Shown piece by piece: positions 9,476 to 35,028 of a DNA stretch of 64,000 nt (position 1 is its first letter; each line of letters starts with the position of its first letter). Source of the stretch: Chitinophaga pinensis. Its GTDB lineage: Bacteria; Bacteroidota; Bacteroidia; NS11-12g; UBA955. Both the position numbers and the translations under genes were made by a program. The notes beneath the pieces were generated by a model. It ran no database searches and was not told where the DNA came from. It was given only the letters and a program-made list of their open reading frames with translations. The stretch is taken from positions 160,059 through 224,058 of the forward strand of contig CAMDAF010000001.1 of the NCBI GenBank assembly GCA_945888525.1. The letters are read 5' to 3'.

Positions 9476-9505
9476 ATTTTTTGTTTAGTTTTTATTATAT
9501 ATTTG
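9476..9505 (+). promoter_or_regulatory. Putative Bacteroidota sigma-A promoter upstream of the cobalamin riboswitch
   Basis: An exact TAnnTTTG -7 element (tatatttg, 9498-9505) with a T-rich upstream region containing TTTG. Confidence 0.3.
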
Positions 9506-9730
9506 CCTCCGGTAACGGTTCCAAATTTTAAGTAATTAAAATTGGATTAAAAGGGAACAAGGGTGAAAATCCCTGACATTTCCCGATGCTGTATGTTTCT
9601 GTATTTTAGGATACAATTTCCGATTAAACACCACTGTCTATTTTGATGGGAAGGTTCGGAAATCATGAAACGAGTCAGAAGACCTGCCTTGCCAATCATG
9701 TTTCATGGCTTTCGGAGAAAAGGCCTGAGG
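9505..9730 (+). promoter_or_regulatory. Cobalamin (B12) riboswitch, with probable expression platform, in the 5' leader of the btuB-like gene
   Basis: Conserved aptamer elements are present: aaagggaacaagggtgaaaatccc, gctgta, the B12 box caccactgt...gggaaggttcgg and gtcagaagacctgcc. A downstream complementary pair atcatgaaac/gtttcatg is consistent with a sequestering helix. Confidence 0.85.
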
Positions 9731-9790
9731 TGTATCAATACTAAGCCATTGTGCATTTCTGTTTTTCCGCTGCTGTGCGCATTTTGACCA

Positions 9791-11677
9791 ATGAAGGCAT
9801 TATTGCTCATATCGTCTATATTACTTGCACCTCTTTTGCATGCCACAAAAGATGGAGACACTTCTATTTGGAGAAATTTTGAACTTATCGCCAGCAAAGG
9901 GAATCTTAACTCTGGCTCTGTTAAAATCAATTTGCCTAGTGGTCAAGATGGCAGTCTGGCCGATGTGTTAAATAAAAACAGTGCTCTTTTTATTAAATAC
10001 TACAGTCCAGGGAGTTTGGCCAGTTCGTCAATGCGCGGAATGGGAGCTCAACACACAGCAATTTTATGGAATGGAATAAATCTCCAAAGTTGCATGAACA
10101 GTATACTCGACCTGAATCTTTTGCCTATTTTTTTTCTAGACAAAGCCTCGATTGAAACAGGCGCGAACGCCGCTTCTTGTGGAAATGGGGCAATTGCTGG
10201 TGCAATTATCCTCAACAATGAAATTAAAGAAAACCAGAGGGTTTATGGCGAAATTGGTGTTGGTAGTTTTGGACAATTCAATCTTGGTTTTGGCTCCAGT
10301 ATTAAATTGAATAAAATCTTTCTGAATACCCGATTTGTAAGCAGAAAAGCTGATAATGATTTCAAATATTATAATATTTTTAAACCAGACAAACCTAAAG
10401 AAAGACTTCAAAACAACCTGTTTATGCAACATGGTATTATGCAAGAAGCCTCGATAAGTCTAAACAGAAAACATTCATTTTATTTTAACTATTGGTACCT
10501 TGAATCTAAAAGACAACTGCCCTCTGCTATGGGCGTCTCTTTGTTGGCGCAAGAACATCAAGACGATTACAACACGATGGTGCTTTTAAAGCATGACTAT
10601 AAACTAAATCAGAAATCGAGCTTGTTGAATAAAATCGCCTATACCTCTGAAAATATAAATTATTTCAATTTGTTTTATCCAGACGCCTATAATGCTGCAA
10701 AATCCATAATTGTTGAATCGGAATTTAAAACACAATTAAACCGTTCGTTTGAGTTATTAACCTCCTTAAACAACACGCACCAAAAAGCTTGGACAGATGG
10801 ATACCGTTCAGGAATAGAGAGGAATTTAAGCTCTGTTTTTGCAAAATTAACTTGGGTCACTAAATCGCCCAAATTAAAGATTAGTATTGCCGATAGACAA
10901 TTGATTGCCAATTCAGTTTTAGCACCTGTAACCCCTGATTTTGGCGTTGAATTTCAAGCCTCTAAATCTTTAAAAATAAAAGGAAACTCAGCCTATAGCT
11001 TTAGGCTTCCTTCTTTTAACGATTTGTATTGGCAAGGTGGTGGGAATCTGAATTTATTGCCAGAAAAAGGCAAAAAACATGAGTTAAGTGTAGAATTAAA
11101 ATCTAAGAATTTTAAATTAGGGATGACCGGTTTTTACCACCAAGTTGATAATTGGATTTTATGGGTTCCCAGCGGTGGGGCTTCTTCATGGAAGGCCACA
11201 AATGCAAAGGAAATTGAAAGTAAAGGTTTTGAATTAGCCACAGAATGGAAGTATTTAATTAACAGCAATGCTTTTCTTAAATTCTTTGCACGCTACCAAT
11301 TTGTATCGAGTATTAACTCCGATGTATATGGCCCAGACAAATCTATTGTTGGCAAGCAATTGTTTTACACACCTCAACAAACTGGCATTGCCAATATTCA
11401 ATATCTATTTGGTAACAATAAAATCTCTTTAAGTTCTACATTTACCGGTAGTAGATATGCAACTGCAGACAACCACATAGATGGTTTGCTGCCTGCCTAC
11501 ACCTTGTTGAATTTTTCTGTAGCTAGAGATTTTTATTACAAATCTTTTAGGAGTTCCATTGAATTTACGGTCTGCAATCTATTAAACACCAACTATTATG
11601 TGTTTGAAAATAGACCTATGCCACTCAGAAATTATCAAATGACATTTAAATACAACATCAATTATGAACAAAAATAA
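9791..11677 (+). CDS. btuB: TonB-dependent outer membrane receptor, BtuB-like (riboswitch-controlled)
   Basis: 628 aa; signal peptide, plug-domain motifs, long Tyr/Asn/Gly-rich beta-barrel; sits directly downstream of the cobalamin riboswitch. Confidence 0.75.
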   Translation: MKALLLISSILLAPLLHATKDGDTSIWRNFELIASKGNLNSGSVKINLPSGQDGSLADVLNKNSALFIKYYSPGSLASSSMRGMGAQHTAILWNGINLQSCMNSILDLNLLPIFFLDKASIETGANAASCGNGAIAGAIILNNEIKENQRVYGEIGVGSFGQFNLGFGSSIKLNKIFLNTRFVSRKADNDFKYYNIFKPDKPKERLQNNLFMQHGIMQEASISLNRKHSFYFNYWYLESKRQLPSAMGVSLLAQEHQDDYNTMVLLKHDYKLNQKSSLLNKIAYTSENINYFNLFYPDAYNAAKSIIVESEFKTQLNRSFELLTSLNNTHQKAWTDGYRSGIERNLSSVFAKLTWVTKSPKLKISIADRQLIANSVLAPVTPDFGVEFQASKSLKIKGNSAYSFRLPSFNDLYWQGGGNLNLLPEKGKKHELSVELKSKNFKLGMTGFYHQVDNWILWVPSGGASSWKATNAKEIESKGFELATEWKYLINSNAFLKFFARYQFVSSINSDVYGPDKSIVGKQLFYTPQQTGIANIQYLFGNNKISLSSTFTGSRYATADNHIDGLLPAYTLLNFSVARDFYYKSFRSSIEFTVCNLLNTNYYVFENRPMPLRNYQMTFKYNINYEQK

Positions 11678-12695
11678 AATATGCAGTTTCATTGCAGTAG
11701 CGCTAATTGCTTTCTCATCTTGTAAGAAAGACCAAGACCTAAAGGTTGAAACAGAAAATTATAAAGGTGTCTTTGTTGTTAATGAAGGCGGATTTGGAAA
11801 ATCAAATGGAAGTATCGGCCTGTATAAACCTGGGTCAAGAACATATCTCGATGCTTTCAAAAAAGCCAATGGCTTGCCATTAGGCGATGTGGTACAATCT
11901 ATGTCTCTAATTGGGAACAATTTTTACATCGTTGTAAACAATTCAAATAAAATTGAGGTTGTGTCGCAAAGTGAATTCAAATCTGTGAGTACAATTTCAA
12001 CGCCTTCTCCAAGATATGTATTAGATGTATCCTACAACAAAGCTTATGTAAGTAACTTTTACTCCAATTCAATCAAAGTACTAGATCTAAACACTAATAG
12101 TATTTCAAAGTCCATTGAAATATCTCACAACAGCGACCAAATGGCGCTTATGAATAAAAAAGTTTATGTCACCACTTTTGACAATAAATTAATGGTTCTT
12201 AATTCGCTCAACGATGCTATAGTGGATTCAATCGCAACAGCGTCTGGATTAAGTAAAATTGTAAATATTGGGGCTTCAAGACTAGCGGTTCTTTGCACAG
12301 GGGTAGTCGATTGGAACAATGGCAGTGTCATCGAAAATGGAAAAATTCAAATCATCAATCTTGGAAATAGTATTGAAAGTTCGTTTAACTTAAGCTCTGG
12401 TAGTTATGGCGGATCAATGGTATACGTAAGCAACACAGCTCTATTGTATTTTTCTTTGGGAAACAATGTGATTTATAAAATGGATCTTTCAGGAAATATA
12501 TCTGAGTTTAAAACTTTAGAGGCTGGCAGAAACGTTTACAGCTTAACCTATAATTCATCCAATTCAAGTATCTACGTAACCGATGCAGGCGATTTTAACT
12601 CGGCTGGAAAAGTGATGGTATATGACCTTTCGGGAAATAAAACCTTAGAATTTGATGCCGGAATTGCGCCCAATGCGATTTTAATGAACGAATAA
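11664..12695 (+). CDS. Surface lipoprotein with a YncE/DUF5074-like beta-propeller; candidate BtuG-type B12-capturing lipoprotein
   Basis: 343 aa; lipobox (AFSSC), VFVVNEGGFG...NGS motif and repeated blade-like segments; position immediately after btuB, as for btuG in Bacteroidota; overlaps btuB by 14 nt. Confidence 0.5.
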   Translation: MNKNKICSFIAVALIAFSSCKKDQDLKVETENYKGVFVVNEGGFGKSNGSIGLYKPGSRTYLDAFKKANGLPLGDVVQSMSLIGNNFYIVVNNSNKIEVVSQSEFKSVSTISTPSPRYVLDVSYNKAYVSNFYSNSIKVLDLNTNSISKSIEISHNSDQMALMNKKVYVTTFDNKLMVLNSLNDAIVDSIATASGLSKIVNIGASRLAVLCTGVVDWNNGSVIENGKIQIINLGNSIESSFNLSSGSYGGSMVYVSNTALLYFSLGNNVIYKMDLSGNISEFKTLEAGRNVYSLTYNSSNSSIYVTDAGDFNSAGKVMVYDLSGNKTLEFDAGIAPNAILMNE

Positions 12696-13724
12696 TTGAA
12701 GTTCATTTATTGTGCTTTTTGTGTTTTATTCCTAACTGCTTGTAAACCAAATATACAACAGTTAACAATTGAACATCCTATATCTTTTGAAGAAATTGAC
12801 TATTCCAATATGTTTGGAATAGCGAATTTTGATTCTTATTCTCAATTGTTTTTCCTTGATGGAACTGATACCACATGGAGCATTAAAAGTTCTGATCTTC
12901 CTTCAAACCCAAAAATGGTCGTGCTGTCATCAGTTTTTGCTGGTTATGTTGAACTTTTAGAAAAACAAGATCAAATCATTGGCGTTGATAATTATAAATA
13001 TTACTGTGACAGTTTGTTGTTAAAAAGATTTGAGCAACAAAAAACCATAGAAATAGGTGAGGAGGGGCAGCTTAATTTGAGCAAGCTATTGCAGTTGAGG
13101 CCAGATGTTTTGATATGCAGTTCTTTTTCTTCACAAGACCAATCTTTAATTAAACGTTTAAAAAAGTCGGGTATTAAGCTTGTATTCTGCGATAATTTCA
13201 AAGAACAAAATCCTCTGGCCCGCGCAGAATGGATTAAACTATTTGGGTTTTTATTTAACTGCCAAAGCAAAGCCGATAGTTTGTTTGACGGTATAGCGAA
13301 TAGGTATGAAAAACAAATTTCAATTAATAGAGCAAAGTCGTTAAAGCCTCTTGTTTTAACGGATGCCCTTTATTCGGATGTTTGGAATGTTCCGGGTGGC
13401 AATAGTTATACTGCTAAATTAATAGAAGATGCGAATGGCACCTATGTTTTTAAAAATAAAAACGAGTTGTTTTCTTATCCTTTAAGTCTTGAACTTGTGC
13501 TCAAAGCGTCTGAAAATTGCGATATTTGGCTTCATGTAAACCAATATAAAACCAAAGAAGAACTTTTCAAAGCCAATAACAGGTACGCGTTACTAAATGT
13601 GTTCAAACAATCTCGAATTTTCAACAACAACAAAAGGGAAAATAGGTTTGGAGGCAATGGTTTTTGGGAAATAGGGGTCGTTAGGCCTGATTTAGTGCTT
13701 AAAGATTTGATCTCAATTTTTTAA
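12696..13724 (+). CDS. Periplasmic binding protein (class III, BtuF/FhuD-like) lipoprotein
   Basis: 342 aa; lipobox (LTAC); KMVVLSSVFAGYVELL...IIGVD...LRPDVLICS pattern of Peripla_BP_2 cobalamin/siderophore-binding proteins; starts 1 nt after the upstream stop. Confidence 0.6.
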   Translation: MKFIYCAFCVLFLTACKPNIQQLTIEHPISFEEIDYSNMFGIANFDSYSQLFFLDGTDTTWSIKSSDLPSNPKMVVLSSVFAGYVELLEKQDQIIGVDNYKYYCDSLLLKRFEQQKTIEIGEEGQLNLSKLLQLRPDVLICSSFSSQDQSLIKRLKKSGIKLVFCDNFKEQNPLARAEWIKLFGFLFNCQSKADSLFDGIANRYEKQISINRAKSLKPLVLTDALYSDVWNVPGGNSYTAKLIEDANGTYVFKNKNELFSYPLSLELVLKASENCDIWLHVNQYKTKEELFKANNRYALLNVFKQSRIFNNNKRENRFGGNGFWEIGVVRPDLVLKDLISIF

Positions 13725-13790: not shown

Positions 13791-15185
13791 GTGCTGTTTA
13801 ACTCCTGGATATTTTTTCTGTTCCTTCCGCTGGTCTTTGCAGCAGTTTACTCTATTCCTCAAAAGTATAGATGGATTGTCCTTCTTGTTGCATCTTACAT
13901 TTTTTATGGTTGGTGGAAAGCAGAATTTCTTTTAATCATTGCTTTCTCAACCGTATTGGATTATTTCTGTGCACTGAAAATTGAAGACTCCCCCAATCAA
14001 TTTATAAGAAAAAGATGGCTAACTCTAAGTTTAGGTATTAACCTTGGTATACTGTTTTTATTCAAGTATTTTTATTTCTTCATCGGCAGTACCTCATGGA
14101 TGCAAGATCTAGTTAGTCCGCACCAAACACTAAAAGGCCTTCTCGATTTTTTGGGTAAGTCGCTGCCAGTTGGTATTTCATTCTATACCTTCCAAACCAT
14201 GAGTTACACACTGGATGTTTATTACAAAAGGGCCAAACCAGAGAGGCATCTTGGGCAGTTTGCACTTTTTGTGTCGTATTTTCCACAACTGGTAGCTGGA
14301 CCTATTGAACGTTTTAAGCATCTAAATGAGCAATTGAAAGTTGAGCATAAATTAGTATATAAAAATTTGCAGTTAGGCTTTAGACTTATGCTTTACGGTT
14401 TTTTTGTAAAAATGGTTATAGCCGACAATCTTTCTTATACCGTTAGCTCTATTTTTAACGACCCTGGTAAGTGGAAATATTACTGGAATATCATTGGTGT
14501 TTTGAGCTTTGGTTTTCAAATTTACGCCGACTTCTTTGGTTATTCATTAATTGCCCAAGGTGTAGCAAAATTATTTGGCATTGAATTAATGGACAATTTT
14601 AACCGTCCTTACCTCTCTGCTAATATTAGTGAATTTTGGAAACGCTGGCATATTTCTTTGAGTACCTGGTTTCGCGATTATGTATACATTCCATTGGGTG
14701 GAAATAGAGTGTCTCACTCTAAATGGATACTAAACATTATGTTGGTTTTTGTTTTGAGTGGATTATGGCATGGTGCCAATTACACCTTCTTGATTTGGGG
14801 CACTTTGCATGGTGTCTTTTATCTTGTTGAACGTTTCTTCCCATTCTCATTGAAATTTAAATGCTTAAATGTATTGATTACATTTTTTGCAGTATCTTTT
14901 GCTTGGATATTCTTTAGAGCCGAAAATTTAGAACAGGCAATTCAAGTAATAAATGGTTTGCTTGGTGGTCTAGACGGACAAAGGCACTTGGATACACAGC
15001 CCTATATTTTCCTATTGTTATTGATTTTTGGAGTTTTAGAATTAGCCCGGGGAAACAAACGCTTCGATCAATTTTGTGCCTCTTATTCTGGCATTCAACG
15101 GTGGACGCTCTATTGCTTTTTAATCTTTTGTATTCTCACCGTTTGTGGTTCAGAATACAGTGCTTTTATTTATTTTAAATTCTAA
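13791..15185 (+). CDS. MBOAT-family membrane O-acyltransferase (AlgI/DltB/PatA-like)
   Basis: 464 aa polytopic; N-terminal MLFNS..F..F.P.....Y.......R......AS..FYGWW... and the conserved His in [24 protein letters not shown]. Confidence 0.85.
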   Translation: [464 protein letters not shown]

Positions 15186-16210
15186 TGGAAGTAAACATCA
15201 AACATATAAGCTTTAAAGTATTGGCCTTGGCATTGACGGTTTCAATAAGCGCTTTTGTTTACAAAAAAATATATTGGGTTCCTGAGCTCAAAGACCAAGG
15301 TCCAATGTTGTTTAACCTCCTGGAATTTGAATGGCACAATGATGTTTTATATCTTGGAGAGTCTTCAAACTATTGGATTGCACCTGAAGACCAAGACAAA
15401 CGAACCATAAGCGACATGATCAATGACAGTTTGCCAGGCTTTAGATTAAGTGGAATGCAGGTTCCTGCTTACCATGCAGGCATGTTTCTTCCAATTGTAA
15501 ATATGATTGATCCTGCAAGCAGAGTAAAGCATTTGGTTGTTACGATGAATCTAAGGTCATTCGACAAGCCGTGGATATTGTCTACCCAAGAAGGTGCTTT
15601 GATGCGTGCAAAATGTTTCTATTACAACAGCAATCCAATTTACAATAGAATGTGCGCTGCCCTGGGCTACTATGAAAATCCTAGTGCTGAGTCGCAAGAC
15701 AAGAAAATGCTAGAAGCCTTTGAATTCGATACGTTGAAAGTTGATTTTCCATTGCAATTTAAGACCATCAAACGTTGGTGCGAGCAAGAGAAATTTCCAT
15801 TGCCACAAGGGGGTGAAGATTTTCCTAAAAGAGAGTTGGCCGACCATTACATCAAAGCGTATGCCTTTCAAATCGATACCAATACCAATCCAAGAATTAA
15901 AGATTTTGATGCCATCGTAAAGGTTTGCAAACAAAAAAACATCAAATTGTATTTTAATCTAATGGCTGAAAATATTGAATGGGCAGACAGTTTGGTCGGT
16001 AAAGAATTGGTCTATTTTATGAAAGCTAACCGAGATTTGTTGCTTGCCCGTTATAGCAGCATGGGTGTTGTAATGGTCGATAATTTAGAATCTGTTCCTG
16101 GTGGGTATTTCGGTGAAAAGAATTGGACGACCGAGCATTACAATCAATTTGGACGTCTGATTGTTGCTAGGAATGTCGCAAATTCATTAAAGAAAAATCT
16201 AAAACGTTAA
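15185..16210 (+). CDS. Membrane-anchored partner protein of the MBOAT (AlgJ/DltD/PatB-like, SGNH-like fold suspected)
   Basis: 341 aa; single N-terminal TM anchor; GESS (GDS-like) motif near the N-terminus and a TEHY motif near the C-terminus resembling the AlgJ DTHW motif; start overlaps the MBOAT stop (TAATG). Confidence 0.35.
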   Translation: MEVNIKHISFKVLALALTVSISAFVYKKIYWVPELKDQGPMLFNLLEFEWHNDVLYLGESSNYWIAPEDQDKRTISDMINDSLPGFRLSGMQVPAYHAGMFLPIVNMIDPASRVKHLVVTMNLRSFDKPWILSTQEGALMRAKCFYYNSNPIYNRMCAALGYYENPSAESQDKKMLEAFEFDTLKVDFPLQFKTIKRWCEQEKFPLPQGGEDFPKRELADHYIKAYAFQIDTNTNPRIKDFDAIVKVCKQKNIKLYFNLMAENIEWADSLVGKELVYFMKANRDLLLARYSSMGVVMVDNLESVPGGYFGEKNWTTEHYNQFGRLIVARNVANSLKKNLKR

Positions 16211-16328: not shown

Positions 16329-18527
16329 ATGCAAAAAATATATTTTCTAAGCGTTTTATTATTGCTTCACATAGCCGGCTATGCACAAAATTCAAGCTTA
16401 CCTATTCAAAATGAGGATTCCAGTATAAACGATATAAACTCGGTTATCGTTCGTTCAAAAAGTGATGGGTTATTTAAAAGTATAGCAGGTTCAGTCGCAA
16501 CCTTGTCGATGGCCGAAATTAAAAGATCTAACCCAATTTCCGCAAATGAAATGTTTAGAAAGATTTCTGGTGTTCATGTTGTGGATGAGGAGGGTGCTGG
16601 CATGCGCATAAATATAGGCATGCGCGGTATGGATCCAGATCGAAGCAGAGGTGTATTGGTTTTAGAAGACGGAATACCTGTTTCTTTAAATCCTTATGGC
16701 GAACCAGAGATGTATTACAGTCCTGTAATAGATCGAATGTCTGGACTAGAAGTCTTGAAAGGCAGTGGTCAAATTATGTTCGGACCACAAACGATAGGGG
16801 GTGTGGTAAATTACATTACAATGAACCCTACACCAAAACAATCATTGCGATTTAAGCTCGGCATCGGTGAGGGTGGATTTAAGTCTACTTTGCTTAATTA
16901 CAGCAATTCATTTGAGAAATTAGGCATTGTTGCAACATTATTGCACAAACAGGCAGATAAATTAGGCTATGCAAAATTTGGAATAACAGATTTTAGCACA
17001 AAATTAGTCTACGATTTCAACAGGAATACCAAACTCATAGTAAAAATTGGCTTGTATAATGAATTGTCAAATTCTACATATATTGGTTTAACACAAACCA
17101 TGTATGACCAAGGTGGGCAAGATTTTGTTTTGATGGCGCCCGACGACCGTTTAGACATTAAAAGGTATTCTTTAAGCGCTTCCTTTAACAAAAATATAAG
17201 TAAAAAACTTAAGTTCAATACCACAATTTATGGATACACAACCAGTAGAAATTGGCAAAGACAAGATTTTTCATCAAGCAAAACAGCTTCAAAACTAACA
17301 GGTGTTATATGGGGCGATAGCAGTTTGCCAAATGGAGCTGTATTTATGCGAAACTCAAATGCCCATCGAAATAGGCAATTTGAGGTTTTAGGTTCTGAAT
17401 CAAAACTTTTATATCTATACCAGTTGTGGAATGTAAAATCAGAACTAAATGTAGGTGTGAGATACCTTTTTGAAAGGGCTATTGAACAAAGGCTAAATGG
17501 AAAGAAACTTGACTCTAGAACTGGAGATTTGGTAGAAGATGAGATTAGAACAGGTAATGCTTTTAGTGCATATGCACAGAACAAAATGAATTTATCAAAA
17601 AAGTTCATACTTTCATTTGGCCTAAGATTAGAATCTTACAACTACCAAAGGAACATATTTAGAAATACGTTTTTAATTAACAATGTTTCTAAATTGCTTG
17701 ACACAAATCTATTGGCCAGCAATGAAATATTAACACTTATTCCGGGTGCAGGAATTAATTATCAAATGTCTAAGAATTTGACAGTATTTGGTGGTATTCA
17801 CAAAGGCTATGCACCACCGAGGGTAAAAGATGCCATTACCAGTTCAGGTCAAGTTTATCAATTGGATGCGGAAAGCAGTTGGAATTATGAGTTGGGATTG
17901 AGAGGTGCGTTTAAAAAGGTTTTGTCCTATGAATTTACAGGGTTTTATATGGATTTTAGCAATCAAATTATACCTGTCTCCGAGTCTTCAGGTGGCACTG
18001 GTGCAGGACTGATAAATGGCGGTGAAACCATACACAAGGGCCTCGAATTGTCCTATAATGTAAAATTATCTGATTGGTTTAAAACAAAATCTAAAATCGT
18101 TTTTAGCAACAACATAACATATGTTAAAGCATACTTTTCTGAGGATAGATATGTAAAAGATGGTACCGTAAATGTCAATATAAATGGCAATAAAACACCT
18201 TACGCTCCTGGATATTATCTCAACTATGCTTTGAATTATGAAACAAAATTTAATTTAGGATTCCTTTTTAGTGCCAACTATACCGGTAGCCAATTTGGTG
18301 ATGTGCTCAATACTGAATTGCCGTCTTTGGATGGCAGAATTGGCAAAATTAAAGACTATTCGGTATACGATTGCAACCTCTATTATAATGCAAGTAAATT
18401 AAAAACAACCTTTAGCTTTACCATTAAAAATATCTTTGACGAACGTTATATCGTTTCTAGAAGACCTCAAGGCATAAGGGTTGGCCTACCAAGGTACTTT
18501 ATGGGTACTATTCAGATTGACTTGTAA
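16329..18527 (+). CDS. TonB-dependent outer membrane receptor
   Basis: 732 aa; signal peptide, plug-domain motifs (ATLSMAEIKRSNPISANEMFRKISGV, VLEDGIPVS), long beta-barrel. Confidence 0.8.
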   Translation: MQKIYFLSVLLLLHIAGYAQNSSLPIQNEDSSINDINSVIVRSKSDGLFKSIAGSVATLSMAEIKRSNPISANEMFRKISGVHVVDEEGAGMRINIGMRGMDPDRSRGVLVLEDGIPVSLNPYGEPEMYYSPVIDRMSGLEVLKGSGQIMFGPQTIGGVVNYITMNPTPKQSLRFKLGIGEGGFKSTLLNYSNSFEKLGIVATLLHKQADKLGYAKFGITDFSTKLVYDFNRNTKLIVKIGLYNELSNSTYIGLTQTMYDQGGQDFVLMAPDDRLDIKRYSLSASFNKNISKKLKFNTTIYGYTTSRNWQRQDFSSSKTASKLTGVIWGDSSLPNGAVFMRNSNAHRNRQFEVLGSESKLLYLYQLWNVKSELNVGVRYLFERAIEQRLNGKKLDSRTGDLVEDEIRTGNAFSAYAQNKMNLSKKFILSFGLRLESYNYQRNIFRNTFLINNVSKLLDTNLLASNEILTLIPGAGINYQMSKNLTVFGGIHKGYAPPRVKDAITSSGQVYQLDAESSWNYELGLRGAFKKVLSYEFTGFYMDFSNQIIPVSESSGGTGAGLINGGETIHKGLELSYNVKLSDWFKTKSKIVFSNNITYVKAYFSEDRYVKDGTVNVNINGNKTPYAPGYYLNYALNYETKFNLGFLFSANYTGSQFGDVLNTELPSLDGRIGKIKDYSVYDCNLYYNASKLKTTFSFTIKNIFDERYIVSRRPQGIRVGLPRYFMGTIQIDL

Positions 18528-19108
18528 TGTTTTGTTGGTTTAAATCTTTTTTAACTAATATTGCTTTAGTGAAAAAGTTCATTTTATATTCTGTTTTTTT
18601 TACTGCAATAAGTTGTGCTCTATTTGCATGCAATCAAGCATCTTCATTTACATTGTTGTCGGGTACAAAAATCACTTTGAATTCAAAATTGTGTGTTTAT
18701 ATTTTTCTAAATTCAGAATGTCCCATTTGTCAAAAATACCAAGGGACTTTTAAGTCAATGGAATTAGATAGTGTGCAAGTTTACTATGTTTTTCCAGGTT
18801 TACAAAGCAAAGAAATGATCAAAGAAATGTGTGAATTTGATTCTATCAGTTTTAACCGTGTTATCCTAGACTCAGATTATAGATTAACCAAACAATTGAA
18901 AGCGCATACGACTCCGGAGGCAATCATCATAAAGGACAATAAAACATATTACAGTGGTTTGATTGACGACCGTTTCACCTCAATTGGTACATCAAAATCA
19001 AGTGCAAGTATAAATTATATTGAGAATGCACTAAATTCGCTGCATAAAAATGAAGCCATTAAAATACCATATACCAAAGCTGTTGGTTGTTTTATTGAGC
19101 CTAATTAG
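18527..19108 (+). CDS. TlpA-like thioredoxin-fold thiol-disulfide oxidoreductase (membrane-anchored or lipoprotein)
   Basis: 193 aa; N-terminal hydrophobic anchor; CPIC (CxxC) redox motif; C-terminal TPEAIIIKDNKTYYSGLIDD resembling the TlpA/ResA signature; start overlaps the TBDR stop (TAATG). Confidence 0.5.
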   Translation: MFCWFKSFLTNIALVKKFILYSVFFTAISCALFACNQASSFTLLSGTKITLNSKLCVYIFLNSECPICQKYQGTFKSMELDSVQVYYVFPGLQSKEMIKEMCEFDSISFNRVILDSDYRLTKQLKAHTTPEAIIIKDNKTYYSGLIDDRFTSIGTSKSSASINYIENALNSLHKNEAIKIPYTKAVGCFIEPN

Positions 19109-20420
19109 TATTGTTTGGAATGCCTGCAGCCTAAAACCGGTTCCAAACTTTGCAAAAGATATTGCCCCAATTATTCACAGCAAATGTTCTCCTTGCCACC
19201 ATAAAAATGGCACAGCCCCTTTTTCATTAATGACATACAATGACGTATCAAAGAGAGCAAAAATGGTTGCTTTTGTTACAGCTAAAGCTTATATGCCTCC
19301 TTGGCCTGCAGACCATAATTACAGTCATTTTTTAAATGAAAGGGTTTTGTCTGATTTTGAAAAAGAACAAATTCAAAATTGGTTTAAAAACAAATGTCCT
19401 AAAGGTGATTTGTCTGCTTTGAAGTATCCCAATTTTGAAAACAATCTGTCTTCACTTGGTAAGCCAGATTTAATATTGAGCTTTCAAGACATTGAAATTT
19501 TCAATGACAATAAAGACCGTTTTTATGTACTTAAATTGCCTTATCAAATGAACCAAGAGCGCTATGTTAGAGCTTTGGAATTTATTCCAGGGCAATACCA
19601 ATATGCCCACCATGTCAATGGACATTACTTAAGGTTTTCAGATGAAAGCAATCCATTCTCGGGCCTAATGAAAACCGATATCGAATCGGCCAACTATTCA
19701 AAAGAATTTATGGAAATGAATTTAGTGAATGCCGATGGCAGTATTCCTTTTCGTGTGCATTCGGCTGTCAATTATTTGCCAGGAGCCTACGGGGTTAAAT
19801 ATCCAAAAGGAATTGGCGGTTTTTTGATGGGCAAGAAAGGGGCTTTTGTCGCCAATGATTTTCACTTTGGTCCCTCGCGCAAACATTTAATTGACAGTTC
19901 TAAAATCTATGTTTACTTTTCAGACCAAGCGCCTCAGCGGGCAACCTATGAATTGATGATGGGCACCAATGGTGTTTCTGAAATTACCCCTGCGCTGATC
20001 GTTCAAGCAAATACCATTAGTAAACATGTGTCCAAATTGACCATTTACAACGACATCTCAATATTAACGGTTAACCCTCACATGCATTTAATCGGCAAGT
20101 CTGTTAAAGCCTATGCCTTAAAGCCAAATGGGGATACTCTGAAATTAATTTCAATCCCTAAGTGGCAATTTCGTTGGCAATATTTTTACACCTACCAATC
20201 GCCTCAAAAAGTACCAAAAGGAAGTACCATTGTTTTAGAAGCAATATTTGACAACACCTTAAAAAATCCCAATAACCCCAATAATCCGCCGAAAACAATA
20301 AGTGAACGATTTGAGAATGCTGGCGCAAGTATGCGCACCACAGATGAAATGCTTCAGTTCATTATCACATATATGCCGTATCAAAAAGGGGATGAATTAA
20401 TTGACCTATCCAAACCATGA
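19050..20420 (+). CDS. Exported fusion protein: N-terminal single-heme cytochrome c domain (PSCyt-like) plus a PHM/DBH-like type II copper monooxygenase domain
   Basis: 456 aa. Signal peptide/lipobox (IVWNACS). A CxxCH motif sits in the context IAPIIHSKCSPCHHKNG...MPPWPAD. In the C-terminal part, an HH pair (AHHVNGH), further single His residues, an HxH in NPHMHLIGKS (compare HTHLxG of PHM/DBH) and TTDEMLQFIITYMPY (compare the DEMCNLYIMYY CuM Met region of PHM). Confidence 0.5.
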   Translation: MKPLKYHIPKLLVVLLSLISIVWNACSLKPVPNFAKDIAPIIHSKCSPCHHKNGTAPFSLMTYNDVSKRAKMVAFVTAKAYMPPWPADHNYSHFLNERVLSDFEKEQIQNWFKNKCPKGDLSALKYPNFENNLSSLGKPDLILSFQDIEIFNDNKDRFYVLKLPYQMNQERYVRALEFIPGQYQYAHHVNGHYLRFSDESNPFSGLMKTDIESANYSKEFMEMNLVNADGSIPFRVHSAVNYLPGAYGVKYPKGIGGFLMGKKGAFVANDFHFGPSRKHLIDSSKIYVYFSDQAPQRATYELMMGTNGVSEITPALIVQANTISKHVSKLTIYNDISILTVNPHMHLIGKSVKAYALKPNGDTLKLISIPKWQFRWQYFYTYQSPQKVPKGSTIVLEAIFDNTLKNPNNPNNPPKTISERFENAGASMRTTDEMLQFIITYMPYQKGDELIDLSKP

Positions 20421-21061
20421 AATCGCTAAAACCTTTATTTATTTTATTTATTATTCTCCTGTCATTGGTTGTATTTCTGATGTATGCTCTACCTGTCTTA
20501 AAACCTGGTAAATTTTTTGGACCCGGCGATACCCGCGGGGGCAAGGAAATGGTAATTAAAAACTATGGAGCTGCTATCGATAGTGCGGCCAATGTATTTG
20601 GTCTATCAGCTTCCTATCTTAAAGCTTTATGTATGCTGGAATGCAGCGGCAAGAAGAAGTTCCAAGCACGTTTTGAAGACCATGTTTACCGCAAATTAAA
20701 AAAAGTCAAATTCAAACAATTAAGCAATTATGAGCATGTTACACCTGAAATGTTGCAAGATGCAAACGATGAAGCTTTGAGAAATTTAGCCAGCAGCTGG
20801 GGGCCATTTCAGTTAATGGGGTATAAATGTCTATTGTTGAACATTAAAATTAGAGACATTCGCGGAGATCAAGCCGTTTATTATGGTGCAAAATGGATAG
20901 ATTTAACCTATGGGGAAACTTTGAAGGAAAAGAAATTCAAGGATGCATTTCACATTCATAATACAGGTTCTCCATTCCCTGACAATGGGCGCGCAAAAAC
21001 CCATGATCCCAATTATTGCAACAATGGCTTGAAATATATAGATTGGTTTAATAAGCACTAA
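20417..21061 (+). CDS. Lysozyme-like / lytic transglycosylase (SLT)-like domain protein with an N-terminal TM anchor
   Basis: 214 aa; LKALCMLECSG (E-S catalytic-type motif), WGPFQLMGY (a GLMQ-type motif) and AVYYGAKWIDL; start overlaps the upstream stop (ATGA). Confidence 0.4.
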   Translation: MKSLKPLFILFIILLSLVVFLMYALPVLKPGKFFGPGDTRGGKEMVIKNYGAAIDSAANVFGLSASYLKALCMLECSGKKKFQARFEDHVYRKLKKVKFKQLSNYEHVTPEMLQDANDEALRNLASSWGPFQLMGYKCLLLNIKIRDIRGDQAVYYGAKWIDLTYGETLKEKKFKDAFHIHNTGSPFPDNGRAKTHDPNYCNNGLKYIDWFNKH

Positions 21062-25004: not shown

Positions 25005-25586
25005 ATGATTTACCGTTTTAAAGTTTGGTTTGAAGAAGAAGAAGAAATCTTTCGTGTTATTGACATAGCACCTTCTGCTTCGTTTTTAAGTTTACACGAA
25101 GTCGTGTTAGATTCTATTGGTTTTAAAAAAGATTTACCAAGCTCGTTTTATTGTTCTGATGACAATTGGAGAAAAGGTAAGGAAATAAGCCTAAATGACA
25201 CTGGGAAATTGTTGATGGAAACTTCTAAATTAAAAGACCATATCAACGATCCGCATCAGAAATTCATTTTTATCACAGATTTTAATGAAAATTGGACCTT
25301 AAATATTGAGTTGCAAAGCATTCAAAATGATGTCAGCGGCATTGCATATCCAATTGTTTTTAAATCTGCTGGAAAAGCCCCAAAACAAAATGAGGGTATT
25401 GGAAGATTTAAAACCGTTGATGAAAACGAATTTGATGAAATAGCCAATAAACTGGTGAGCAAGCATGCGCCTATGATTGACGAGGATTTTGATGAGGAAG
25501 GTTTTGGTGAAGAAGGCGAAGATCCTGACGAGGATTCGGATGAATTTGATGGGTCACAAGATGCTGCTTTCGAAGAAGAATTATAA
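25005..25586 (+). CDS. pRiA4b ORF-3-like family protein with a strongly acidic C-terminal tail
   Basis: 193 aa; MIYRFKVWF...FRVIDI...L.....I N-terminal pattern of the PRiA4_ORF3 family; C-terminal ~45 residues almost entirely D/E. Confidence 0.45.
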   Translation: MIYRFKVWFEEEEEIFRVIDIAPSASFLSLHEVVLDSIGFKKDLPSSFYCSDDNWRKGKEISLNDTGKLLMETSKLKDHINDPHQKFIFITDFNENWTLNIELQSIQNDVSGIAYPIVFKSAGKAPKQNEGIGRFKTVDENEFDEIANKLVSKHAPMIDEDFDEEGFGEEGEDPDEDSDEFDGSQDAAFEEEL

Positions 25587-26356
25587 TGCAAACCAAGGTC
25601 ACCTTTTTAGGAACTGGAACTTCTCAAGGTGTGCCCTTAATTGCCTGCCCTTGTCAAATCTGCCAAAGCACTGACCCTTTAAATAAACGTCTCCGTAGCA
25701 GCATTAAAGTTGAATGCGAAGGTAAAACCATCGTTTTCGATAGTGGCCCCGATTTCCGCCAACAAATGTTGCGTTCTGAAACCAAAAAGCTCGATGCCCT
25801 AGTTTTTACCCACGAACACAAAGACCATATTGCAGGTATGGACGATATCCGTGCATTTAATTACATCAATAAAAGAGCCATTGATGTGTACGCAACGCTT
25901 CAAGTTCAAACGGCCCTCAAACGCGAGTATCAATACGTATTCTCCGATTTTAAATACCCAGGAATTCCTGATATACATTTAAATACCATTGAGAACAATT
26001 TGGATTTTCATGTTGGAGATGTTTGCATCAAACCGATTGAAGTCATGCACTATAAATTACCAGTGCTTGGTTTTAGAATCAATGATTTTACCTATATCAC
26101 CGATGCTAATTTTATTTCTGATTCTGAAAAGGAAAAAATCAAAGGCTCTAAAGTATTGGTCCTAAATGCACTTAGAAGAGAAAAGCACATCAGCCATTTT
26201 ACCCTCGATGAGGCAATCGCTTTAGGTAGGGAACTGGAAATACCCGAGGTGTACTTTACACACATTAGCCACCAGTTGGGCTTGCACCATGAAGTGGATG
26301 CGCAGTTGCCCGATGGATTTCACCTGGCCTATGATGGTTTGGAACTGCTCATTTGA
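25586..26356 (+). CDS. MBL-fold metallo-hydrolase (PhnP/GPMB-like)
   Basis: 256 aa; HxHxDH motif (THEHKDHIAG) and downstream His/Asp ligands; start overlaps the upstream stop (TAATG). Confidence 0.75.
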   Translation: MQTKVTFLGTGTSQGVPLIACPCQICQSTDPLNKRLRSSIKVECEGKTIVFDSGPDFRQQMLRSETKKLDALVFTHEHKDHIAGMDDIRAFNYINKRAIDVYATLQVQTALKREYQYVFSDFKYPGIPDIHLNTIENNLDFHVGDVCIKPIEVMHYKLPVLGFRINDFTYITDANFISDSEKEKIKGSKVLVLNALRREKHISHFTLDEAIALGRELEIPEVYFTHISHQLGLHHEVDAQLPDGFHLAYDGLELLI

Positions 26357-33169: not shown

Positions 33170-33242
33170 GCCACTTTAGCTCAGCTGGTAGAGCAACTGA
33201 TTTGTAATCAGTAGGTCGTTGGTTCGATCCCGACAAGTGGCT
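33170..33242 (+). tRNA. tRNA-Thr (anticodon TGT)
   Basis: Manual cloverleaf fold: acceptor gccactt/aagtggc, anticodon loop tttgtaa, T-loop ggttcgatcc; no encoded CCA. Confidence 0.85.
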
Positions 33243-33257
33243 CAGAGAATGAAATTT

Positions 33258-33338
33258 GGGAAGTTTCCAGAGTGGCTAAATGGGACAGACTGTAAATCTG
33301 TTGCTTCGGCTTCGGTGGTTCGAATCCACCACTTCCCA
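33258..33338 (+). tRNA. tRNA-Tyr (anticodon GTA), long variable arm
   Basis: Acceptor gggaagt/acttccc, anticodon loop actgtaaat, extended variable arm (gttgcttcggcttcgg), T-loop ggttcgaatcc. Confidence 0.85.
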
Positions 33339-33394
33339 CAAATTAAGAGAAAGAAAACAGTGATGAACGTTGAAGAAGAAACTGTTTTTGATAT

Positions 33395-33467
33395 GCGGGA
33401 GTAGCTCAGTTGGTAGAGCGACAGCCTTCCAAGCTGTAGGTCGCGGGTTCGAGCCTCGTCTCCCGCT
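33395..33467 (+). tRNA. tRNA-Gly (anticodon TCC)
   Basis: Acceptor gcgggag/ctcccgc, anticodon loop cttccaa, T-loop ggttcgagcc. Confidence 0.85.
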
Positions 33468-33580
33468 CTTTATCGAGGGTTATCACTTAACAATGAGAAC
33501 CTGCTCTCTCTTAAGAAAACCGATTGCCAATAGAATTGTCTGGCTAACAATTTTGTGAAGCGGTCAAAAAAAAGTTACCA

Positions 33581-33652
33581 GCCGTTGTAGCTCAGGGGTA
33601 GAGCACTTCCTTGGTAAGGAAGAGGCCAAGGGTTCAAATCCCTTCAATGGCT
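33581..33652 (+). tRNA. tRNA-Thr (anticodon GGT)
   Basis: Acceptor gccgttg/caatggc (one G-U pair), anticodon loop ttggtaa, T-loop ggttcaaatcc. Confidence 0.85.
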
Positions 33653-33708
33653 CAAAAGACTAGAAATAAAGAAATTTAAATAATAACAATAAAAAAATCA
33701 AATTAATC

Positions 33709-34896
33709 ATGGCAAAAGAAACATTTGACCGCTCCAAAGCCCACGTTAACATTGGCACTATTGGTCACGTTGACCACGGTAAAACCACATTAACTGCGGC
33801 CATCACTACAGTATTAGCTTCTAAAGGACTAGCCGAAAAGTCATCATTTGAATCTATCGACTCAGCTCCAGAAGAAAAAGAAAGAGGTATTACCATTAAT
33901 ACTGCACACGTAGAATACAATACAGATACCAGACACTATGCACACGTAGATTGTCCAGGCCACGCTGACTATGTTAAGAACATGGTTACTGGTGCTGCAC
34001 AAATGGACGGAGCAATTATCGTAGTTGCTGCAACTGATGGACCAATGCCACAAACACGTGAGCACATTCTATTAGCCCGTCAGGTTGGTGTACCTAAGCT
34101 TGTTGTTTTTATGAACAAATGCGACATGGTTGACGATGAAGAATTATTAGACTTAGTTGAAATGGAAGTTCGTGAACTTTTAAGTTTCTACAATTTTGAT
34201 GGTGACAACACGCCAATCATCCGTGGTTCTGCCTTAGGTGGATTAAACGGTGATCCAGCATGGGTTGACAAAATCATGGATTTAATGAACGCTGTTGATA
34301 CTTGGATTCCAATTCCTCCACGTTTGGTTGATCTACCATTCTTGATGCCAGTTGAAGACGTATTCTCGATCACAGGTCGTGGTACAGTTGCTACAGGTCG
34401 TATCGAAAGAGGTGTTACCAACGTAGGTGATGTAGTTGACATCATTGGCTTAGGTGATGAGAAATTAACTTCAACTGTAACCGGTGTTGAAATGTTCCGT
34501 AAATTATTAGATAGAGGTGAAGCTGGTGACAACGCAGGTTTATTATTGCGTGGTATCGACAAAACCCAAATCAAAAGAGGTATGGTTATATGTAAGCCAG
34601 GTTCTGTTGCTCCTCACGCTAAATTCAAAGCTGAAGTTTACGTATTGAGCAAAGAAGAAGGTGGTCGTCATACGCCATTCTTTAACAAATACCGTCCACA
34701 ATTCTACTTCCGTACCACAGATATTACAGGTGAAGTAACTTTACCAGAAGGTGTAGAAATGTGTATGCCTGGTGATAACATCACTGTGACTGTACAATTG
34801 ATCGCTCCAATCGCAATGGAAAAAACTTTAAAATTCGCTATTCGTGAAGGTGGAAGAACCATTGGTGCTGGTCAAGTAACTGAAATTTTAGATTAA
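33709..34896 (+). CDS. tuf: Translation elongation factor Tu
   Basis: 395 aa; [18 protein letters not shown] and NKCD GTPase motifs. Confidence 0.97.
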
Positions 34897-34918
34897 TAAT
34901 ATTAAACAATAAGGATGT

Positions 34919-34957
34919 TAGTCACCCTGGTCCTAAATCAGGGTGACTAATGTTTTT
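34919..34957 (+). terminator. Terminator or attenuator hairpin after tuf
   Basis: Stem gtcaccctg/cagggtgac with a 9-nt loop followed by taatgttttt; ends immediately before tRNA-Trp. Confidence 0.45.
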
Positions 34958-35028
34958 ACGAGAGTAGTTCAAGGGTAGAATAGAGGTCTCCAAAACCTTT
35001 GATGGGAGTTCGAATCTCTCCTCTCGTG
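34958..35028 (+). tRNA. tRNA-Trp (anticodon CCA)
   Basis: Acceptor acgagag/ctctcgt (A1:U72 as in E. coli tRNA-Trp), anticodon loop ctccaaa, T-loop gagttcgaatctc; conserved tuf-tRNATrp-secE position. Confidence 0.8.

Follow-up and report, generated by a model that had tools for sequence, protein, structure and literature searches.

Four closely packed envelope genes in a Bacteroidia genome: a conserved pair of thioredoxin-fold lipoprotein and predicted heme-copper monooxygenase with lineage-specific neighbours

Do four envelope genes that overlap or nearly abut one another form a single dedicated machine, or does their packing in one genome overstate the unit? The question is raised by positions 16329-21061 of a 64,000-nucleotide stretch of contig CAMDAF010000001.1 (assembly GCA_945888525.1, Chitinophaga pinensis; 35% GC), referred to here as the window. 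Exact sequence matches assign it to scaffolds of lake metagenomes, and the genome is that of an uncultured freshwater bacterium. The genes encode a TonB-dependent receptor (TBDR), a thioredoxin (Trx)-fold lipoprotein, a cytochrome c joined to a copper monooxygenase and a lysozyme-like protein, and a sequence-only reading had proposed that they are one translationally coupled operon. Comparison with related loci leaves a unit of two or three genes: what is conserved is the pair of Trx-like protein and heme-copper monooxygenase, to which the clade of the window (clade A) adds the lysozyme-fold protein. In the explanation that we favour, with a probability of roughly 0.65, there is no four-gene machine but a stand-alone receptor gene, followed by a three-gene chain that has the Trx-monooxygenase pair as its periplasmic redox core.

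The genes and their junctions are listed below; ORF1 is also labelled TBDR, ORF2 Trx or TRX, ORF3 CUMO (Cu monooxygenase) and ORF4 LYZ.

16329-18527, + strand: ORF1, TonB-dependent receptor, siderophore/FecA-like, 732 aa (Pfam, NCBIfam)
18528-18568, + strand: spacer of 41 nt from the receptor stop to the probable ORF2 start (alignment of relatives)
18569-19108, + strand: ORF2, Trx-fold lipoprotein, 179 aa from GTG; the longest ORF is 18527-19108 from ATG (profile and PDB searches, starts of relatives)
19050-19108, + strand: out-of-frame overlap of ORF2 and ORF3, 59 nt, coding in both frames
19050-20420, + strand: ORF3, cytochrome c::Cu monooxygenase lipoprotein, 456 aa
20417-21061, + strand: ORF4, membrane-anchored lysozyme-like protein of PF11860-type muramidase fold, 214 aa

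A scan of a genome collection gave 377 relatives of ORF3, every one of them from a metagenome-assembled genome of uncultured Bacteroidia. Eighty loci were analysed, 78 of them distinct; all of their ORFs were clustered and the recurrent clusters were then annotated. Loci of related genomes carry L-numbers below and proteins of the representative library carry P-numbers, except that P341 denotes a protein of 341 aa. The set of four, which had been expected to co-occur in a fixed order, did not hold together in these genomes. The Trx gene was found directly upstream of CUMO in 56 of the 78 distinct loci and within 5 kb in 67, ORF4 was the next gene downstream of CUMO in 18 of 71 loci, all of them in clade A, and the receptor gene stood directly 5' of the Trx gene in just four of the 48 informative loci. 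An unrelated, apparently cytoplasmic protein of 369 aa was next downstream of CUMO in 23 of the 71 loci. The CUMO tree splits into three large clades that differ in their syntenic neighbours.

The pair also occurs as a single chain. Among the best matches of a family profile, natural fusions of Trx, cytochrome c and PHM-like domains were found in P0266 (627 aa), P0374, P0398 and P0399, with a Trx domain of the form CPIS...GC[FYIT][FI]E. Gene order and these fusions together give strong evidence that ORF2 and ORF3 function together. The fusions also speak against a restriction of the Trx-CUMO association to a single syntenic lineage. Two of the fused proteins (P0398 and P0399) carry an extra C-terminal extension of 200-300 aa that apparently consists of helical repeats.

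Peptidylglycine alpha-hydroxylating monooxygenase (PHM) and dopamine beta-hydroxylase (DBH), the copper type II monooxygenases, are textbook eukaryotic enzymes that depend on ascorbate, and animals make noradrenaline and amidated peptides with such enzymes. The earlier identification of ORF3 as a cytochrome c fused to a monooxygenase of this type held in our analysis, as a CxxCH domain, a PF03712 match, the ligand set and the two-domain fold were all found. The cytochrome c domain covers about residues 30-120 and the monooxygenase core about residues 140-445, behind a lipoprotein signal peptide whose lipobox Cys26 is conserved in at least 90% of the sequences. The heme motif CSPCH is encoded at 19185-19199; its CxxCH residues (C46, C49 and H50) are invariant, as is Met82 within MPPWPAD, and the domain combines the CxxCH motif with a plausible distal ligand and the cytochrome fold of a c-type cytochrome. 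Sixty homologues of 47-86% identity share invariant H187-H188...H272 and H344-x-H346...M434, and the conserved cysteines of ORF3 are limited to the lipobox Cys and the CxxCH pair. In the fold search the core is a two-domain beta-sandwich that retains the PHM geometry, and its C-terminal domain matched PF03712 with 27.3 bits, above the gathering threshold (GA) of 23. The copper ligands of PHM are H107/H108/H172 and H242/H244/M314, and its substrate clamp is formed by R240/N316/Y318 (PMC12164859). The order and spacing of the ORF3 ligands match this set, whereas the carboxylate clamp is not conserved in register, the corresponding positions of ORF3 being invariant N342, Q436 and I438.

ORF3 shares fold and metal sites with PHM and DBH at an identity of 15-17%, but it differs from them as a bacterial periplasmic lipoprotein with a dedicated, sometimes fused, Trx-fold partner. 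PHM and DBH use soluble ascorbate, whereas ORF3 has an N-terminal c-type heme domain, where DBH instead has a DOMON domain, and its electron donor is probably a different one.

The ORF3 family is large and apparently uncharacterised. A profile search of the full library returned 16,801 clusters at 50% identity with E<=1e-3 and 2,569 with E<=1e-30; members are labelled 'cytochrome c', 'c-type cytochrome' or 'hypothetical protein' in their sources, and no description of the family turned up in literature searches for bacterial enzymes of PHM/DBH type. Here a large bacterial family keeps the full two-copper site of PHM and DBH and appears to have it wired to a covalent heme c and a Trx-fold partner. 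Such a family would show how PHM/DBH chemistry is powered without ascorbate and would point to an unrecognised oxidative modification of the envelope, and it is a tractable target for enzymology.

The description of ORF2 as TlpA-like stands at the level of the superfamily, as the protein has a Trx fold, and does not stand at the level of mechanism, where the CxxC dithiol is not conserved and the nearest structures are 2ywi and 2cvb. ORF2 contains CPIC, a cis-Pro and a C-terminal GCFIE motif, and its match to Pfam Thioredoxin_2 (23.9 bits) lies under GA. Searched against the PDB, the profile of the ORF2 family matched 2ywi (E=2e-16), 2cvb (E=5e-15) and 3u5r from end to end, with GC[ST]I inside the alignment, and the same profile matched ResA/StoA and related reductases with E values of 1e-6 to 1e-11. 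Seven positions are invariant in the family (C51, P52, P116, Y128, G130, G173 and C174); the first Cys, in CP, is thus fixed, while the second Cys of the CxxC motif varies between C, S and A.

On this evidence ORF2 resembles the 2ywi/2cvb-like Trx-fold family with its 'CP...GC' signature, whose traits it carries, and the conserved CxxC dithiol of TlpA and ResA was not found. With 2ywi (Geobacillus kaustophilus), 2cvb (Thermus thermophilus) and 3u5r, which we take to be the 'PRX_like1' group of CDD, ORF2 shares the first Cys in 'CP', the loose second position and GC[ST]I. It differs from them in being a lipoprotein that is genetically coupled or, in some organisms, fused to a heme-copper monooxygenase, and the copy in the window keeps CPIC. 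With TlpA, ResA and CcsX it has in common the Trx fold, the extracytoplasmic location and the cis-Pro, and the CxxCH of ORF3 is a classical substrate of ResA/CcsX; these proteins nevertheless match ORF2 more weakly, and their CxxC dithiol is not conserved in its family. It had also been argued that TlpA-type proteins keep the cysteines of periplasmic copper sites reduced. This argument fails because PHM-type copper sites are built of His and Met and no Cys of ORF3 other than those of the lipobox and CxxCH is conserved, and the analogy with TlpA acting on Sco and CoxB does not transfer to ORF2 and ORF3 for the same lack of Cys ligands.

Variation of the Trx gene was observed in other clades. 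In many loci of the c2_369 clade (for example, L072:6779-7897 and L052:6907-7995) a Trx-like gene occurs in tandem duplicate upstream of the monooxygenase. The longest ORF 5' of the monooxygenase in L052 and L053 would encode 362 aa, with the Trx-like domain in its C-terminal part and an unrelated N-terminal half.

The junctions between the genes had been taken as a chain of stop/start overlaps, read from the sequence as TAATG at 18525-18529, the 59-nt overlap at 19050-19108 and ATGA at 20417-20420. The last two are real and conserved; the coupling by TAATG is not. The frame of ATG 18527 does not stay open in the two closest TBDR-containing relatives: it runs into TAG in L008 and into TGA in L016, in each case ahead of a GTG aligned with window position 18569. 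Homologues of ORF2 were called at 174-180 aa, which fits a start at GTG 18569 and not a protein of 193 aa, and the GTG-initiated protein opens with a lipoprotein signal peptide, (M)KKFILYSVFFTAISCALFAC. For these three reasons the true ORF2 start is most likely GTG 18569, 41 nt past the receptor stop. The closed frames and the homologue lengths rule out TAATG as a translational coupling, and it is regarded as an artefact of ORF extension.

The 59-nt overlap, which had been flagged as atypical and possibly a sequencing error, is genuine. In 21 distinct related loci the two genes likewise overlap by 53-59 nt with both frames conserved, which excludes a sequencing error or frameshift; one frame encodes the GC.IE tail that is invariant throughout the ORF2 family and the other encodes the conserved signal peptide of ORF3 with lipobox Cys26. 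A programmed frameshift that would create a Trx-CUMO fusion at this place was rejected because the overlap already supplies ORF3 with a signal peptide and lipobox, and the true fusions found elsewhere lack that signal peptide. Sixteen distinct loci share the ATGA overlap of ORF3 and ORF4.

ORF1 is a TonB-dependent receptor as proposed, with matches to the Plug domain (PF07715, 55.6 bits) and to the barrel (PF00593, TonB_dep_Rec_b-barrel, 122 bits). Its best NCBIfam matches are TonB-siderophore and FecA models, all under their cut-offs, and the model for copper-type receptors (NF049946, CU motif-type) reached 41 bits against a cut-off of 700. Membership of the receptor in an obligate unit could not be upheld. 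The four loci in which it adjoins the Trx gene all come from the immediate lineage of the window, and in L010, whose CUMO is 85% identical to that of the window, and in L023 P341 is followed by the Trx gene without an intervening receptor. The order in L015 is MBOAT-P341-TBDR, then a divergent extracytoplasmic function (ECF) sigma factor module, then TRX-CUMO-LYZ. An oppositely oriented ECF-sigma module likewise separates the receptor from the Trx gene in L014 and L026 as well as in L015, and its c6-c7 genes intervene in L025, L027 and L030. The L015 order is likely the ancestral layout of clade A, from which the lineage of the window appears to have lost the ECF module, so that the receptor now abuts the Trx gene; L010 and L023 would have lost both the module and the receptor. 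The receptor is a lineage-specific neighbour, a stand-alone gene of siderophore type, and not a component of the module. Two clusters considered as alternative receptors were discarded: the upstream cluster c5 is a histidine kinase, and c22_709 shows neither a Plug nor a barrel signal and does not resemble ORF1.

Sister loci have a TAnnTTTG box, the -7 box of Bacteroidetes promoters, 11-13 nt upstream of the Trx ATG, and its position immediately upstream implies that the Trx gene has its own promoter there. In the window the spacer contains TAATATTG at 18556-18563, which is this box with one mismatch, and an exact TAATTTTG occupies the aligned position in L008, L016 and L009, where the GTG or TTG start of the Trx gene follows 5 nt later. 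A distance of 5 nt between box and start is very short and the promoter role of the putative box in the window is uncertain. A scan for sigma-70 promoters and terminators gave signals no higher than the shuffled expectation.

Ten loci have a gene for an ECF sigma factor (Sigma70_r2/r4) that is transcribed divergently from Trx (L011, L012, L014, L015, L017, L020, L022, L026, L028 and L031; for example, L015:6876-7349 on the minus strand). In most of them it is followed by two more module genes, for a membrane protein of 146 aa that resembles an anti-sigma factor and for a secreted, lysine-rich protein of 165 aa. In L011, L012, L014 and L015 a TAnnTTTG box was seen within a conserved spacer of 110 nt. 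This module (c10-c7-c6) is absent from the 64-kb window.

The favoured explanation, a Trx-monooxygenase core next to a stand-alone receptor gene, can be put as a path of electrons. In a periplasm without ascorbate the covalent heme c would replace it as the one-electron donor to CuH (His187/His188/His272), from which electrons would pass to CuM (His344/His346/Met434). CuM would activate oxygen for the hydroxylation of a C-H bond in a substrate of the envelope or periplasm. The Trx partner may serve maturation, by keeping the CxxCH cysteines reduced for heme attachment or by handling Cu(I), or it may act as a donor through which the CcdA/DsbD thiol pathway reduces the heme. The membrane-anchored ORF4, chained to the enzyme in clade A, probably shares its envelope target or locale.

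Several observations weigh against this account. The N-terminal domain model PF01082 (Cu2_monoox) remained unmatched on ORF3 even at E<=10, and neither phmmer nor profile searches in the PDB linked ORF3 to PHM, so the link consists of the fold search and the Pfam match of the C-terminal domain. The copper ligands are probably equivalent to those of PHM, judged by motif order, spacing and overall fold rather than by a residue-level superposition, and heme attachment, copper loading and catalysis are likewise predictions from sequence. The variable second Cys of the Trx partner, with CPIS in all fusions seen, fits poorly with a classical heme-maturation reductase and argues against a simple ResA-like role. 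As to the receptor, an orthologue lies within 6 kb upstream in 20 of the 48 informative loci, and this proximity could reflect function and not mere synteny. The gap between the receptor and ORF2 in the window has no perfect promoter box, only the one with a mismatch 5 nt from the start, and ORF2 may still be co-transcribed with the receptor gene.

A bolder version of the favoured explanation would make this the first prokaryotic, ascorbate-independent system of PHM/DBH type, in which reducing power of the cytoplasmic thioredoxin/CcdA-DsbD thiol pathway reaches the Trx partner, heme c and CuH/CuM in turn and the enzyme modifies the terminus of a stem peptide or an N-acyl-glycine lipid. We regard this full scheme as tentative and rather unlikely to hold in all its parts; if true, a family of thousands of proteins would carry out a hitherto unknown modification of the envelope.

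Among the alternatives, one gives the enzyme a particular target in the cell wall and draws on ORF4 and on the two genes upstream of the receptor:

13791-15185, + strand: MBOAT O-acyltransferase (Pfam MBOAT, 101 bits)
15185-16210, + strand: P341, membrane-anchored protein of 341 aa with a 'LYLGESS' motif (no family match)

The reading of ORF4 as lysozyme-like was borne out by a lysozyme/SLT/endolysin fold. An N-terminal membrane helix (residues 2-28) is followed by a lysozyme-like domain modelled with a pLDDT of 92.9, a PHROG endolysin family matched with E=1.1e-4, and the invariant E75, E87 and SWGPFQLMG align with the VES and SWGlFQIMG motifs of Pae87. The fold thus comes with the catalytic Glu in the helix-end E-S/C motif, although the protein misses the threshold of PF11860 (13.5 versus 22.3 bits, E=0.087). 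The predicted fold is shared with the PF11860 phage muramidases (Pae87, 7q4s; AP3 endolysin, 5nm7) and with SLT-type transglycosylases. Unlike the phage muramidases, ORF4 is chromosomal, is kept at one locus in at least 18 genomes, has an N-terminal membrane helix and falls below the Pfam threshold; it may be a hydrolase or a lytic transglycosylase, or may only bind glycan. The 369-aa downstream protein of other clades was considered as a divergent ORF4 and rejected, having no similarity to it and no match in the PDB or Pfam.

On this alternative, which we consider unlikely, the lysozyme-fold protein and an O-acyltransferase pair of MBOAT and SGNH proteins work together with the monooxygenase, which would hydroxylate a group associated with peptidoglycan. 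Such a target could be, for example, the C-terminal D-Ala or Gly of the stem peptide, with attack on the same pro-S hydrogen as in PHM, an enzyme that reportedly accepts C-terminal D-Ala. The muramidase/lytic-transglycosylase fold of ORF4, chained by ATGA in 16 loci, is in its favour, as are the gene chains of L010, where the order with overlaps is MBOAT[-1]P341[-4]TRX[-59]CUMO[-4]LYZ, and of L023, which is arranged likewise with P341[-11]TRX[-53]CUMO (pairs at L010:5104-7529 and L023:1000-3395). Other clades, too, repeatedly have MBOAT genes and SGNH partners in the vicinity of the pair. A distance of 189 nt separates CUMO from a divergent MBOAT gene in L057, and L049, L058 and L065 have, 1.5-5 kb downstream of the pair, genes for an MBOAT protein and two GDSL proteins, one of them with two LysM domains (L049:13751-16896, L058:13017-16165 and L065:3655-8925, the last also with a DUF218 protein). 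These sets resemble the patA-patB-ape cluster for peptidoglycan O-acetylation, and MBOAT-SGNH pairs of the PatA/PatB type O-acetylate peptidoglycan (PMC12148441, PMC6174289).

The window, like PatA/PatB, has an MBOAT protein with an overlapping, membrane-anchored partner, but the partner in PatA/PatB is an SGNH protein and P341 matched no SGNH model and nothing in Pfam, NCBIfam or the PDB, so that a PatB-like role is unproven; the window MBOAT itself reached 144 bits with the DltB-like NCBIfam model, under its cut-off. All of this is guilt by association inside syntenic clades. ORF4 is moreover absent outside clade A, where the unrelated 369-aa protein is found instead, and the clamp R240/N316/Y318 of PHM is replaced by N342/Q436/I438 in ORF3. 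As a whole the neighbourhood hints only weakly at the envelope as the target.

The idea with which the locus was first presented, one dedicated four-gene system in which the receptor imports a substrate or copper and the other three proteins process it, is very unlikely. The window, L008, L009 and L016 do have the four genes tightly spaced and in one direction, no terminator-like site lies between them on the + strand, and the orthologous receptor within reach in 20 of the 48 loci fits the idea too. The rarity of direct adjacency speaks against it, together with the loss of the receptor from L010 and L023, where P341 overlaps the Trx gene, and its separation by ECF-module genes in several loci; outside clade A, neither of the two remaining CUMO clades has a receptor of this kind beside the Trx-CUMO pair. 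The TAATG junction is not conserved, and the receptor scores far under the copper-type model. The upstream btu-like genes and MBOAT are as syntenic as the receptor, and the neighbourhood is therefore explained by shared ancestry.

Sco proteins are Trx-fold binders of copper, and on another alternative ORF3 is a lipoprotein for copper handling or electron transfer, for example in periplasmic copper homeostasis or as an oxidase, and its Trx partner is a Sco-like Cu(I) chaperone that works through two Cys. The Trx partner does keep exactly two invariant Cys (in CP and GC) and no CxxC dithiol, and the composition of heme and copper is like that of electron-transfer proteins. The complete CuH and CuM ligands, including the catalytic Met, are however invariant over thousands of homologues and, with the two-domain PHM geometry, are the signature of monooxygenase chemistry; no metal-resistance genes adjoin the locus. 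We hold this role to be highly improbable.

PHM oxidises N-acylglycines, and by analogy the monooxygenase might act on glycine lipids. One clade has glsB and glsA upstream of CUMO, and in the reverse orientation to it, in 13 loci, 11 of which have a called CUMO ORF; in most of the 13 the genes adjoin CUMO directly (L036, L038-L042, L046, L055, L056, L061, L063, L068 and L070; for example, L038:1915-3664), and both genes match NCBIfam equivalogs above cut-off (NF053696, 457 bits; NF053697, 329 bits). GlsB and GlsA make these lipids, the N-acyl-glycines (PMC12971839). We set this reading aside as the most improbable of all, as the 11 CUMO proteins share 69-96% pairwise identity and the single clade is effectively one evolutionary event, no glsBA occurs within the 64-kb window, the carboxylate clamp is not conserved in register and the review cited mentions no oxidised form of these lipids.

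Beyond these subjects, the four ORFs end a co-directional array that opens with a cobalamin riboswitch (RF00174 at 9498-9705, 87 bits) and continues with a 628-aa receptor, a DUF5074 beta-propeller (11664-12695), a periplasmic binding protein (Peripla_BP_2, 12696-13724), MBOAT and P341. The part at 9498-13724, directly 5' of the MBOAT gene, looks like a B12-type uptake locus. Five tRNA genes are clustered at 33170-35028 on the + strand. At 25005-26356 a PRiA4_ORF3-like gene is followed by a gene of metallo-beta-lactamase fold that matches Pfam Anti-Pycsar Apyc1. This second gene and the adjoining glycosyltransferase gene are uncalled on scaffold L002, compared with L001 around 16537-18576, and the downstream coordinates are shifted by about 0.5 kb, which suggests a strain-level indel.

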